Source: Eledone cirrhosa
Lineage: Eukaryota
Direction: 5' to 3'
Assembly: GCA_964016885.1 (NCBI GenBank)
Contig: OZ024749.1
Coordinates: 46,810,001 to 46,874,000 of the forward strand
DNA: 64,000 nucleotides
This document shows positions 28,741 to 49,707 of the stretch, piece by piece (position 1 is the first letter of the stretch; each line of letters begins with the position of its first letter). Below the pieces are notes generated by a model. The model was not told the origin of the DNA, did not search any database, and worked only from the letters and a program-made list of their open reading frames with translations. Made by a program: the position numbers and the translations under genes.

Positions 28741-29070
28741 AAAGTTATATTTAAATTGTTGTGTTACAACTAGTAAATATTTATAACTGATATAAAAGCA
28801 CTCGACAAATATTTGGAGTATATTTACAATATTGAATAAATGGAAACTATATTTATAAAACCATATTTATTTCATTATATATATTTCAGGGATAACATAT
28901 TAACAATATGCTATGCCTTCCTCAGACAAAATACAATATAAACAGTTTTATAGATAAATAGATTCGACATACCGTAACAACATCTACTTGGGAAGGTTTA
29001 ATATGTTATCCCTGAAATATATATAATGAAATAAATATGGTTTTATAAATATAGTTTCCATTTATTTAAT

Positions 29071-32611: not shown

Positions 32612-32977
32612 GAATGCAAATAACTATGTGTATACTCTGGTAATGTATCTTAAATTGCCCATCGAGTGCGCTGAGATACAACCGGTAGTGGCATTGATAA
32701 ATATGCTGGGTTCGTCAACCCTTATTATATATATGTATATATATATATATATAAACAATTAAGTTAAAAATGTACATCCACATATGTATACTGAAATACT
32801 AGTATGCATATGAATACACACACGTATACATATGTAGATGTACCAAGTCTTTCACTGGTCACTTTATTGTGAGTATCCAGCTATTCTGTATGTAAACACA
32901 CAGACAAACCGGTTTTTAGAGTCATACTGGTTTTTGAGGAAACACCTTTCCTCTATTCTCCAGAAAGCCAGACAAGG

Positions 32978-33022
32978 AATATTGAACCAGTTTCGTTGTT
33001 GTTACAACTCATCAGCAATATT
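32978..33022 (-). ncRNA. Minimal type I hammerhead ribozyme (R1 copy 1)
   Basis: - strand: aatattg-CTGATGA-gttg taacaa caac-GAAAC-tg-GTT-caatatt. Helix I is 7 bp and helix II is 4 bp. Confidence 0.8.
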
Positions 33023-33443
33023 TACCTATCTACCGGCCTTTCTGGAGAATCGTAAAAGCACATATCGTTATATGCTTTTTCTATGAACATTAGTAGTGGG
33101 CAGACTAATTTGCATAGAGTGTGAGTACGTACCGGTTCAACGGAGACGATATAAACAAATAACGAAACGAAAATAAATTTCGTTTCGTTTGTAACTCACT
33201 TTTGTATGACTGACGCTTAAACAATTAAGTTAAAAATGTACATCCTCATATGTATACTGAAATACTAGTATGCATATGAATACACACACGTATACATATG
33301 TAGATGTACCAAGTCTTTCACTGGTCACTTTATTGTGAGTATCCAGCTATTCTGTATGTAAACACACAGACAAACCGGTTTTTAGAGTCATACTGGTTTT
33401 TGAGGAAACACCTTTCCTCTATTCTCTAGAAAGCCAGACAAGG

Positions 33444-33488
33444 AATATTGAACTAGTTTCGTTGTTGTTACAACTCATCAGCAATATT
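33444..33488 (-). ncRNA. Minimal type I hammerhead ribozyme (R1 copy 2)
   Basis: Same as copy 1, with the palindromic helix III ACTAGT intact. Confidence 0.85.
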
Positions 33489-33883
33489 TACCTATCTACC
33501 GGCCTTTCTGGAGAATCGTAAAAGCACATATCGTTATATGCTTTTTCTATGAAAATTAGTAGTGGGCAGACTAATTTGCATAGAGTGTGAGTACGTACCG
33601 GTTCAACGGAGACGATAAAAACAAATAACGAAACGAAATTAAATTTCGTTTCGTTTGTAACTCACTTTTGTATGACTGACACTTAAACAATTAAGTTAAA
33701 AATGTACATCCACATATGTATACTGAAATTTAATTTCGTTTCGTTATTTGTTTTTATCGTCTCCGTTGAACCGGTACGTACTCACACTCTATGCAAATTA
33801 GTCTGCCCACTACTAATTTTCATAGAAAAAGCATATAACGATATGTGCTTTTACGATTCTCCAGAAAGGCCGGTAGATAGGTA

Positions 33884-33928
33884 AATATTGCTGATGAGTT
33901 GTAACAACAACGAAACTAGTTCAATATT
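33884..33928 (+). ncRNA. Minimal type I hammerhead ribozyme (R1 inverted copy)
   Basis: aatattg-CTGATGA(33891-97)-gttg taacaa caac-GAAAC(33912-16)-TA-GTT-caatatt. Confidence 0.85.
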
Positions 33929-34216
33929 CCTTGTCTGGCTTTCTGGAGAATAGAGGAAAGGTGTTTCCTCAAAAACCAGTATGACTCTAAAAACCGGTGT
34001 GTCTATGTGTTTACATACAGAATAGCTGGATACTCACAATAAAGTGACCAGTGAAAGACTTGGTACATCTACATATGTATACGTGTGTGTATTCATATGC
34101 ATACTAGTATTTCAGTATACATATGTGGATGTACATGTTTAACTTAATTGTTTAAGCGTCAGTCATACAAAAGTGAGTTACAAACGAAACGAAATTTAAT
34201 TTCGTTTCGTTATTTG

Positions 34217-34257
<41 letters not shown>

Positions 34258-34260
<3 letters not shown>

Positions 34261-34495
34261 TGGAAACAAATGAAACGAAATTTCATTTAACACTCTTAGT
34301 ACGGCTGTTACTTAAATATAAGTATGGATACGTACATACATATATGTATACAGACGTACAAACGTATGCATATATATACATACATGCACAGATATATAAA
34401 TGTACGTATGGATATACCGAACATTTATTATAATGCTCGGTTGGTTGTTAAACAAACATCCCGAATTAAGCCGTACGCTAAACGATGCGAGAATC
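34258..34495 (-). mobile_element. Partial copy of family R2, next to the R1 array
   Basis: Matches 60130-60350: TGAAACGAAA, GTACGGCTGTTACTTAAATATAAGTATG, ACCGAACATTTATTATAATG, AAACAAACATCCCG, TTAAGCCGTA. Confidence 0.8.
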
Positions 34496-36409: not shown

Positions 36410-37019
36410 CATTGAGTATATGTTGGTTGCTTACCGACGTCATAGTATGCAGATTGGAGCACTCGACGAAGTACGCAGGTTGGTTTCGTTACTCCGGAGT
36501 AATGTAAAATAAAGTAATTAAGTCAAATATTTAAGATTTGGCTTCGTTTATTAAAGATGTACTGCTATTTATATTTCGGTGACAGCCATCATTGGCTGTG
36601 ACCTCTTCAGGCAGTTCGAATTGGTGTTGTAGAGACAGGTACACATGTTGTTAAAGTGTTTTACTCCGTCAATACTCCGATATGTCCAGCTCCTGGTTGG
36701 GTTGTTATTTCTCTGAGGAACAGGAATCATATGAATTCTAACAAACGAATTCCGGCGTCATAGGTCACTCTCTCATCCCATTGGTCAGTTGTGAGAACAT
36801 TCCTCAGTCAAAATTCTATAGAAATCCTTTTCTGAGGCAATCTGTTGTGGTTGTTTTTTTTTAAGTACAGCTGACCCCTCCCCCCCCCCACCATCCCCTT
36901 GTATTTATTGGTGTTAGGGGGTCAGCTGGCAGGTCAGACTTAGTTCTACTGCTGGTGTCTTTAGAAGAATGAGTGTGTGTGGGTAGGCACCCACACACAC
37001 TCATTCTTCTCAACACATC

Positions 37020-43955: not shown

Positions 43956-44573
43956 TGGAATAGCTTAGATAGGGCTAGACATAAGATAGGGAAAGCCACC
44001 TCATGGTACAACAACCAGAGATACCAGAGTGTCATGTTTGTGGACGCTAACCCTGGAGGGAAATTAGCTAACCCGTGTAGAAAGACCCTGAGAAAGACCC
44101 ACTTAAATATTAAGGTGGGAGAAAAGCCAGGAACTACCATAAAATCCCTGATCAGCAAAACCTACCCTTTTAAGAAAACCCACTGTACTAATAGGAAATG
44201 TATCATATGTAAAGTATGCCCCCGGATAAACTGTAAAACTAGAAACGTAGTCTATAGCATGAGATGTACACAGGGTACTTGCAGAAACATTACAACAACA
44301 TACATAGGCGAGACAGCTCGTAGCATAGGTGAAAGGATAGAACAATACTGGGGGGAACTAAAAGGACGAAAAAGCGGTCCAGTACTATACAAACATGCCA
44401 GACAACAACACGACGGTAACATAGACAACATAGAAATTAGAATAATATCTAAACATAGAAATGACCCAGCAGATAGGCAAATCAGACAGGCCAGTGAAAT
44501 GGAACTTAGAAGGCCAAGGCTAAAAAGAAATAATGAATGGAATAACAACAACACCCAAACAAGCAACACATGA
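43956..44573 (+). CDS. 5'-truncated Penelope-like element ORF: Cys-rich linker plus C-terminal GIY-YIG endonuclease
   Basis: Frame is open from 43956: WY...SVMFVDANPGG.LA, a CxxxxCxxC linker, NVVYSMRC...C...YIGETARSIGERI, KH...H and a terminal N..W. This is typical of PLE GIY-YIG domains. Confidence 0.9.
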   Translation, partial: WNSLDRARHKIGKATSWYNNQRYQSVMFVDANPGGKLANPCRKTLRKTHLNIKVGEKPGTTIKSLISKTYPFKKTHCTNRKCIICKVCPRINCKTRNVVYSMRCTQGTCRNITTTYIGETARSIGERIEQYWGELKGRKSGPVLYKHARQQHDGNIDNIEIRIISKHRNDPADRQIRQASEMELRRPRLKRNNEWNNNNTQTSNT

Positions 44574-44869
44574 CCTAAGATAAGCATAAATAAATAAATA
44601 GATACATAAATAAATAAATAGATACATAAATAAATAAATACATACACACGCACAATAACAACAAACACATATAAACACACACTAGTAAAGATGGAATACA
44701 TTAACCAATACACAGTCACCCAATCACGAACACGCATCAAATAAAACACTATACACACACGCAAACGCATTCGCAAAGAAGACAAAATAAAATAAACAAA
44801 TAAATAAATATATAAACAGACCAAATAAAGATGGCGTAGAAAACACAATGCAACGGGAGGAAACAATAG

Positions 44870-44912
44870 CACCACTGACGAAGTTGCAGATGTGCAACGA
44901 AAGAACTTTGAT
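44870..44912 (+). ncRNA. Degenerate minimal hammerhead in the PLE 3' UTR
   Basis: cacca-CTGACGA-a gttgca gatg tgcaac-GAAAG-aa-CTT-tgata. Helix I is imperfect. Confidence 0.6.
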
Positions 44913-45162
44913 AAACTATATATATATGTTTGTATCTATATTGTATCTGTATTATTTTTGACAGTTGGTCAGTCAATGGCAACATTGAGGACCGAATAAA
45001 TTAGATTACCGTTATAAAAGACACAGAAGCGAAAAGCGAAAACCAACCAAACAGTGAGTGTGTAGTGTTATTAATTCTGGCAATATTACACATATATGAC
45101 CCTCCCCAAGTATAAGAGTATTTGTTTCGACACACGATTTCATATCAAAAACCTGGCAAAAC

Positions 45163-45600: not shown

Positions 45601-45604
<4 letters not shown>

Positions 45605-45857
45605 GAAGTAATTCTGTCGGAAAATCCAGGAAAAAAGAGTGCTCTGTGTAGGTAACATAGCTTAATTGTTATGTAATAAACAACATAAGGCAATTATTCC
45701 ATTTACCAGTGGTTTCTTAAAAGCAAAAGATTTGCTTTCAATCCTCAGAATGAAAAAAAGAGACCAGGATTTTTTCATTCTGAGGATTGAAAGCAAAATC
45801 TTTTGCTTTTAAGAAACCACTGGTAAATGGAATAATTGCCTTATGTTGTTTATTACA

Positions 45858-45862
<5 letters not shown>
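45601..45862 (-). mobile_element. Short PLE-type 3' end with fold-back (arms about 45668-45758 and 45770-45861), inside (TA)n
   Basis: Near-perfect inverted repeat with an HHR in each arm and a ~67-bp unique left extension. Confidence 0.8.
45774..45831 (+). ncRNA. Type I hammerhead ribozyme (mirror copy at about 45698-45754, - strand)
   Basis: ttcatt-CTGAGGA-ttgaaagcaaaa tc ttttgcttttaa-GAAAC-cactg-GTA-aatgga. Confidence 0.85.
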
Positions 45863-48979: not shown

Positions 48980-49236
48980 TTAAGTTATTTTATAGTGAGC
49001 GAATTTAGCTTTTAGTTTGTGGTTGCAGTATAATGATCGTTCAATTCTATCGTTAAGTAGTTTGTTTTGGGATATTAATATGTAAAAGAGTTCAAGGTTA
49101 CATAACCTGCAGTACTTCAATCCACTCCGATATGCACTTGCGCTGGAAAGTATATCCCATTTTAAGGTGAACTGTTGGTTGCGTTCACGGAGTTGCCAGG
49201 TCTTGTTGGCGAGCTTGGTTACAAAACACCGTTGTG
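48980..49236 (-). pseudogene. C-terminal fragment of a PLE GIY-YIG endonuclease (KW...CxxC..E...LNxRxE...CxH type, possibly Hydra clade)
   Basis: TKLANKTWQLRE...LKWDILSSASAY...CRLCNLELFYI...LLNDRIERSLYCNH. The N-terminal part of the track ORF (49237-49297) comes from the inverted arm. The clade assignment is from memory and untested. Confidence 0.75.
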
Positions 49237-49707
49237 AACTATAACATCGCTTTCTTGCTAACCACCTTTTCTTCCCCCACACTACAAGACAATACACTGC
49301 TTATCACTATAAATGGTAACCCAGTGCAATTCATAGATTACTACTACAAACCCAAGGTTCACTCACCACATAAACTTAGTCTGTCCCCTCTCTACCTCTC
49401 TCTCTACATCCATTACACTCTCTCTCTCTCGCATTTGGCCTACCTCCCTCTCCACATCTATGAACCTGCCCTCTGGGGCAATACATAATTCCGACCTTAA
49501 CTATCAACGCATCTCTCCAAAAGTAACCAGTATAATAAAACCCCTACCATAACATTTTGATTAAGATATCTACAAACCACTCTCTCCTACTTCTCCAACC
49601 CCTGCATATCGTTCTCTCTCTCTCCCCTACTTTTCCCTCTTCCTTTTCTACTCTATCTTCCCCAACAACCCCACTTAATGGTATTTACATTGTACAATTT
49701 ACCATTC

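Follow-up and report, generated by a model that had tools for sequence, protein, structure and literature searches.

A Young Hammerhead Retrozyme Family of Eledone cirrhosa Inserted into TA Repeats with the Two-End Geometry of PLEs

The window, a stretch of 64,000 nucleotides from Eledone cirrhosa (contig OZ024749.1, positions 46,810,001 to 46,874,000), has at 32752-34223 an element built from a 466-nt unit in two opposed arms. Arm A (32752-33729, ribozyme-sense on the minus strand) holds 2.10 units, which tandem-repeat analysis of the window returns as 2.1 tandem copies with 98% matches, and arm B (33725-34223, ribozyme-sense on the plus strand) holds 1.07 units in 499 nt that are 98-99% complementary to the arm A side. 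The arms overlap by the five nucleotides GAAAT (33725-33729), at phases 188 and 270 of the unit, where phases count from the first base past the predicted cleavage site (window position 33922), and (TA)n target runs flank the element at 32724-32751 and 34221-34257. An earlier note on this DNA had described these head-to-head units, their microhomology and the TA runs at both ends, and the sequence bears the description out. The 3' end of arm A lies at phase 233 (site A) and that of arm B at phase 302 (site B), both of them fixed sites. In arm B, site A (34149-34154) and site B (34221-34223) bound a "tail" of about 70 nt with a long hairpin (34149-34223, plus strand), and the two would be a pair of reverse transcription start sites.

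The unit has a GC content of 35% and a strong fold (z = -9.1, with none of 100 shuffles equally stable). As had been claimed, it has no open reading frame: when it is circularised, the longest stop-free frame is 60 codons and there is no ATG frame of at least 30 codons. The copies had also been said to differ by a few private substitutions each, and ten positions do vary among them in this private manner, while one further variant, at 34039 on the plus strand, is common to all three units (also at 32867 and 33333). The element is a real member of a new family within a known kind, the non-LTR retrozymes.

Each unit carries one type I hammerhead, in agreement with the earlier description, detected both as a match to Rfam Hammerhead_HH9 and by a core scan. 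The three are at 33873-33944 on the plus strand (core from 33891, predicted cleavage after 33921) and, on the minus strand, at 33428-33499 (predicted cleavage after 33451) and 32962-33033 (predicted cleavage after 32985). Their Rfam matches have E values from 3.1e-6 to 7.2e-6 and 37-39 bits, which is under the gathering score of 52. In the core scan all have an intact core, a stem I of 7 bp, a stem II of 5 bp and a stem III of 2 bp closing UA; loop III is palindromic (ACUAGU) in two of the three and non-palindromic (ACUGGU) at 32962-33033. Between families the hammerhead stems covary, being 88.8% paired over seven distinct, related rows (0/500 shuffles), and within the 466-nt family one stem II pair is T-A in 387 cores, A-T in 87 and mismatched in 2. 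The number of fixed changes in the ribozyme core, 0 observed when 2.9 are expected, is uninformative on conservation. Two further hammerhead cores, from repeated families, occur on the minus strand at 36566-36610 and 28876-28925. The Rfam miRNA matches in the window were rejected as microsatellite noise.

The 37-nt ribozyme core has 4,959 exact matches in the 3.0-Gb assembly, and a control has 0. One end motif together with TA is matched 1,875 times, which means at least 1,875 insertions on many chromosomes; the other end motif is matched 726 times on the forward strand, and its both-strand total of about 1,450 is an estimate, because the reverse count was inflated through repeated listing. 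The 466-nt family is young and has roughly two thousand copies. The earlier reading of a single, fairly recent insertion is thereby supported as an event at this place, but not as a singleton, since the element is one of about 2,000. Two sets of loci were studied. The first has 65 loci, 38 via similarity search and 27 from the first 100 core matches, and these 27 were not chosen by their ends; the second has 80 loci chosen for the B end out of 100 places listed, one record holding two insertions. An additional sample has 6 further loci of a young 468-nt subfamily. There are also a divergent variant subfamily and mosaic copies (L023, L189, L220, L256 and the clade around L086), which suggests template switching or recombination between related RNAs. 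An octamer-like motif, ATGCAAAT, at 33791-33798 on the plus strand is kept in three related families, but the 468-nt subfamily, which is very young, has three A>G changes in it. Its role is putative: it may be an snRNA-type promoter as in newt satellite 2, a resemblance for which a literature look-up gave no confirmation.

Consider now where the arms end. In the first set, 48 of the 113 ribozyme-sense arm ends fall at phase 227-233 (site A), 60 at phase 299-303 (site B) and 5 elsewhere, which makes 108/113 at one of the two sites; among the 27 loci unselected on ends the fraction is 43/44. The tail between the sites is 69-74 nt long in the 466-nt family. The two-armed insertions of this set are head-to-head with their 3' ends outward, and their arms divide the sites between them almost without exception: 41 of 42 pair A with B, one pairs A with A and none B with B. 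The other first-set loci comprise 4 with one odd end, 1 that is complex and 18 that are single-armed, several of the last bearing a tiny second arm. In the second set there are 46 AB insertions and 10 with a tiny opposite arm, with 0/56 BB; of the others, 3 have an odd end, 14 are single, 5 are cut by the fetched edge and 2 are complex. Independent choice of site is rejected with p about 1e-11 in the first set and 1e-20 in the second.

The inner ends, by contrast, are scattered. They are uniform in phase (Rayleigh p 0.27 in the first set and 0.10 in the second), those within 10 nt of the predicted cleavage site number 1/113 and 6/128, at chance level or lower, and all 90 of 90 arm junctions are distinct. 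Overlaps of at least 2 nt are found at 26 of 48 junction rows (two of which repeat one locus) and at 18 of 44. The statement that the arms start at different phases of the unit, if taken to mean arbitrary ones, was wrong for the outer ends, which are two family-wide fixed sites about 70 nt apart. The earlier note had further held that fixed ends of genomic copies would speak against its reading; the tabulated phases are fixed at the outer ends and scattered at the inner ones, and the fixed outer ends count in favour of PLE machinery, because a tail bounded by two sites is a PLE signature.

Outer ends run into TA at 100 of 113 in the first set, which supports the proposed targeting of TA by the inserting machinery. 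Of 47 inverted loci, 5 have target duplications of 12-17 nt, in targets other than pure TA; two of seven calls (L045 and L005) were judged spurious. One young insertion (L167, G000:C1:85313730-85314312) lies outside TA; its duplication, about 14-17 nt long, is clear and looks like splice-junction sequence. The use of two fixed sites, one per arm, likewise upholds the suggestion of PLE-type mobilisation, and we infer from the end geometry that synthesis is primed from both 3' overhangs of a staggered cut. That the priming is of the PLE two-site type is very probable. In L1 twin priming, too, two primers give two cDNAs and a head-to-head inversion joined by microhomology. The second L1 primer is used at variable internal sites, however, whereas here both sites are fixed and the arms can exceed the unit length.

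The likeness to endonuclease-positive PLEs extends to the tandem and 5'-inverted form, the two-start tail, the AT/TA target preference and the hammerhead (PMC8557442; PMC11167929). In the texts of these papers, tail, inversion and TA targeting are described by Craig et al. 2021 (PMC8557442), and Frangieh et al. 2024 report that the purified protein cuts and extends both strands in vitro, with synthesis beginning at two internal positions that correspond to the ends of the tail in the genome (PMC11167929). The family differs from such PLEs in that it has no ORF and up to about 17 pure units per arm, and in that its tail is about 70 nt, as against 30-40 bp in those accounts (PMC8557442; PMC11167929) and about 44-58 nt in local PLEs. 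Further, the in vitro start site is given as alike on both strands (PMC11167929), whereas the genome here follows a near-strict rule of one A and one B. The Chlamys elements such as MRC1 (PMC8557442) resemble the family as non-autonomous PLE derivatives with multicopy head-to-tail insertions, but hold 3' sequence in common with their partner, and their clade is reported there without canonical hammerheads.

Judged by what a sequence can test, the element has every feature of the metazoan non-LTR retrozymes. As their descriptions (PMC7229834; 10.64898/2026.07.22.740005) go, these too are non-coding repeats in tandem, GC-poor and strongly self-paired, each with a single type I hammerhead that has a weak helix III and a palindromic loop, and they are present in thousands of copies in genomes that also have PLEs; lengths are given as 170-400 nt (PMC7229834) and 51-972 nt (10.64898/2026.07.22.740005), against 466 nt here. 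What sets the present family apart is that it consists of dispersed two-armed insertions with two fixed ends, one per arm; the main text of the 2020 paper (PMC7229834) does not have the word "inverted", and the text of the preprint (10.64898/2026.07.22.740005) describes no fixed ends. A review states that retrozyme repeats show no motif betraying their partner (PMC7761336, in its text), whereas the ends found here point to a PLE. In that preprint Li, Clavereau and Pollet 2026 link retrozymes to PLE pLTRs by distribution and phylogeny; Xenopus retrozymes have a pLTR relative, and none was found here. The plant LTR retrozyme, with a type III hammerhead in LTRs and a 4-bp duplication, was rejected as a model, the present hammerheads being type I, the units tandem and the duplications 12-17 nt. 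The literature, as far as it was covered, holds no report of retrozymes with a fixed pair of ends, with A/B pairing or with footprints of editing, though supplements of these papers may show such copies.

The same TA run holds, at 34256-34476 on the minus strand, a 5'-truncated copy of an older 429-nt retrozyme family. It is a separate insertion and about 91% identical to other 429-nt copies (L099-L117). The 429-nt family has 2,111 candidates in the assembly; its unit is colinear with the 466-nt unit (295 of 480 columns identical), and its ends are homologous, at phases 219 and 275, and obey the same two-end rule. A third, more distant retrozyme relative lies at L146:7385-7688, and a short hammerhead element of head-to-head form sits in TA at 45603-45862 of the window; the offset between its ends is about 62-66 nt, and it has 1,706 candidates.

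A partner PLE with 3' sequence like the unit was looked for in the neighbouring PLE family, which has full ORFs of about 1,216 aa, in four other PLE families and in 13 further divergent 3' regions, and none was found; only TA-rich noise is common to them and the unit. These families and regions share the TA targeting and, where ends were seen, have two of them, about 44-58 nt apart in three families. The earlier statement that the inversion geometry ties the element to the neighbouring PLEs is accordingly right for geometry and wrong for sequence. Pfam named none of 7 PLE ORF pieces at its cut-offs, so the PLEs were recognised by their structure and by RT and GIY-YIG motifs visible in the sequence. 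In the window, 43956-45160 (plus strand) is a truncated copy of an abundant PLE, also at L061-L066, with an ORF of about 1,216 aa that has an Asn-rich insert, ends 58 nt apart and a hammerhead-like core that carries an extra base. A fragment of another abundant PLE family (L142-L145), whose 3' region has a hammerhead with a stem II extended to about 115 nt, is at 48980-49300 (minus strand). A family at L146-L151 has intact 900-aa ORFs, ends about 44 nt apart and CCGAAGA in place of CUGAnGA in its hammerhead-like core.

What was the template? Arms are longer than one unit in 81 of 113 cases in the first set and 83 of 135 in the second, and they cross the predicted cleavage site 221 times with a single indel. 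Such long arms and nearly scarless crossings exclude a single round of copying from a cleaved linear monomer. In some insertions, moreover, all units share a variant seen in no other locus examined. The 33-nt haplotype around 34039 has 3 matches genome-wide, all in the window element's own three units and so in both arms, and at 26 of 87 well-covered loci a variant that is absent from the other sampled loci is fixed in all units. The 468-nt subfamily, with 69 matches at 7 loci, has arms that reach about 17 units, and since nearly all these units are identical, this suggests that long arms were already present at insertion. Units are fully identical in only 4 of the 42 loci having at least three, and variants that recur periodically at L059, L087, L090 and L009 reveal that these arrays were duplicated later as DNA or copied from multimeric templates. 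Of the rolling-circle reverse transcription of an RNA of about 466 nt that had been proposed, what the data favour is the repeated copying of one monomer template. We consider it quite likely that one monomer was copied repeatedly, and somewhat less securely, though still probable, that it was a covalent circle.

Eight sequencing runs were matched to the unit as well. X1 has matches at very high depth and X4, X6 and X8 at low depth, and a Hi-C run from the same coded organism as X9 has 2 reads; the matches in 16 coded organisms may therefore stem from contamination and are not taken as horizontal transfer. One X9 contig returns on itself after 466 nt, as a tandem DNA array would also make it do.

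The changes fixed in all units of an insertion have a spectrum of their own. Counted on the RNA strand in the first set, 15 of the 26 rare insertion-fixed variants are A>G and none is T>C, whereas the 130 private variants include 15 A>G and 14 T>C, the private class leaving out ten loci with misaligned edges or mosaics. Rare-site variants new to the second set did not replicate the bias (7 A>G against 7 T>C of 46, many of them from one divergent subfamily), and the pooled rare-site counts are 16:7 with p 0.06. Changes were also counted on a tree made from the haplotypes of 81 loci, with the divergent variant as root and with its clade and the deepest branches left out. There the ratio of A>G to T>C is 45:17 among all 122 changes and 33:7 among the 72 on young branches; counting each distinct site once gives 23:7 (p 0.003). 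Where a branch comprises new loci alone, the ratio is 20:3 of 42. A tree built with the counted columns omitted gives 42:17, and for private changes the ratio is 33:41 of 334. Seven sites have A>G more than once, and the changes are concentrated in a single hairpin (336-345). Selection for pairing should raise C>T as well; A>G outnumbers C>T by events (p 0.004), and by sites at a borderline p 0.05. Mutation linked to transcription in the donor loci would bias towards A>G in the same way, and under this cause as under editing a change in one unit must spread to all units. The neighbour and pairing preferences characteristic of ADAR are not significant among the fixed A>G changes, and the window element's own unique variant is G>A. 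Our best reading of the bias is A-to-I editing of the template, with the chances about even that ADAR is its source; the text of PMC7229834 names editing among the possible causes of the heterogeneity of mussel circles. Private changes over all loci have 64 G>A against 32 C>T on the RNA strand, without any context preference seen for G>A, an excess that may be cytosine deamination of first-strand cDNA.

The strongest competitor to a monomer template keeps the two-site PLE priming and lets an uncleaved linear multimer from long homogeneous master arrays be copied, with re-expansion and homogenisation of the arrays at the DNA level and any circles as by-products. In the published in vitro system, as far as its text goes, unprocessed RNA is the main PLE substrate and hammerhead cleavage is unneeded for insertion (PMC11167929); local tandem amplification is proposed by Li et al., and the text of their preprint has only 1 of 9 Xenopus retrozyme dimers cleaved (10.64898/2026.07.22.740005). 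The periodic variant patterns fit such duplication, and the identical daughters at 7 loci fit one master, which a gap could hide: one 468-nt subfamily arm, at L168, breaks off at an assembly gap and is possibly such a long master. Yet the assembly offers no donor for the window haplotype, and the daughters never repeat one another's junction. At each of two young loci the arms add up to more units (19.8 and about 25) than the longest same-sense array of the same haplotype that is fully assembled. Homogenisation draws on private changes and would leave their spectrum unshifted, and A>G makes up 33/334 of these as against 33/72 of the young fixed changes. We therefore regard the multimer as unlikely, although it deserves to be taken seriously.

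Less likely again, and in our view improbable, is a linear RNA just over one unit long that is copied by precise template jumping between its terminal repeats, for which a circle would be unneeded. It predicts the same single-molecule signature and the same seamless concatemers, and there are enzymes of a suitable kind, PLE RTs being sister to telomerase (PMC8557442, in its text) and DRT2 being reported to make tandem cDNA off a non-coding RNA (PMC12039810). A fixed RNA 5' end should, however, pile the inner ends up at one phase, and no such pile-up is seen; the conserved, covarying hammerhead would be left without a role; and retrozyme circles are reported as abundant in other animals (PMC7229834).

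The unit might instead be the pseudo-LTR of an autonomous PLE and the copies its truncated tails, given that a tandem or inverted form with a tail is the usual PLE form in the account of PMC8557442 and that the genome has many more PLE families than those compared. This is very improbable, for none of 143 locus records has retrozyme arms running into a PLE ORF, as the earlier note had expected of an element unattached to a reverse transcriptase gene; in the two records with a same-sense PLE neighbour TA runs stand between, and truncation of a PLE cannot produce a series of as many as 17 pure terminal units. An origin of the unit from a pLTR is possible. An assembly artefact or DNA-only amplification (as a satellite, an extrachromosomal circle or a Helitron-like element) is hardly credible, since, hard to assemble as palindromes and long identical arrays are, the copies bear private substitutions, insertions of like architecture but different junctions are spread over many chromosomes, and the ends and target duplications are PLE-like, the ends being fixed.

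We are thus left with a retrozyme that was probably copied by a PLE RT/endonuclease from one monomeric, and probably circular, RNA at both cut TA ends. Its cycle may be pictured as follows. Tandem units would be transcribed, their hammerheads would release 466-nt monomers, and these would be ligated into circles. A PLE protein, perhaps as a dimer, would cut both strands of a TA repeat and so leave two 3' overhangs, which would serve as primers, the one at site A, the other at site B. Synthesis from each would then go round the template between 0.1 and about 17 times, after which the two cDNA ends would anneal through a few bases and be filled in. Changes on that RNA molecule, probably including A-to-I edits, would appear in every unit, and some arrays would be altered later by DNA-level duplication. 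The fullest version, a double rolling circle in which a PLE dimer primes at A and B on one circular RNA and ADAR edits enter every unit, is put forward tentatively, at somewhat less than an even chance.

That an animal retrozyme circle is the template of insertion, and that PLEs mobilise it, appear as proposals in the text of PMC7229834, and the origin of PLE tails and inversions is called undefined in that of PMC8557442. If the double rolling-circle reading is true, the family evolves largely by RNA editing, there is proof from the genome that the retrozyme circles of animals serve as the template for transposition, and PLE tails and inversions are explained as asymmetric priming from two ends. 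A family with about 2,000 young copies and a burst of seven near-identical insertions allows exact predictions to be made, namely a pair of start sites with one in use at either end of the break, concatemers copied off a circle, and RNA-level changes that all units have in common. Confirmation would provide a natural case of copying from circle to genome, in which RNA edits become inherited DNA.
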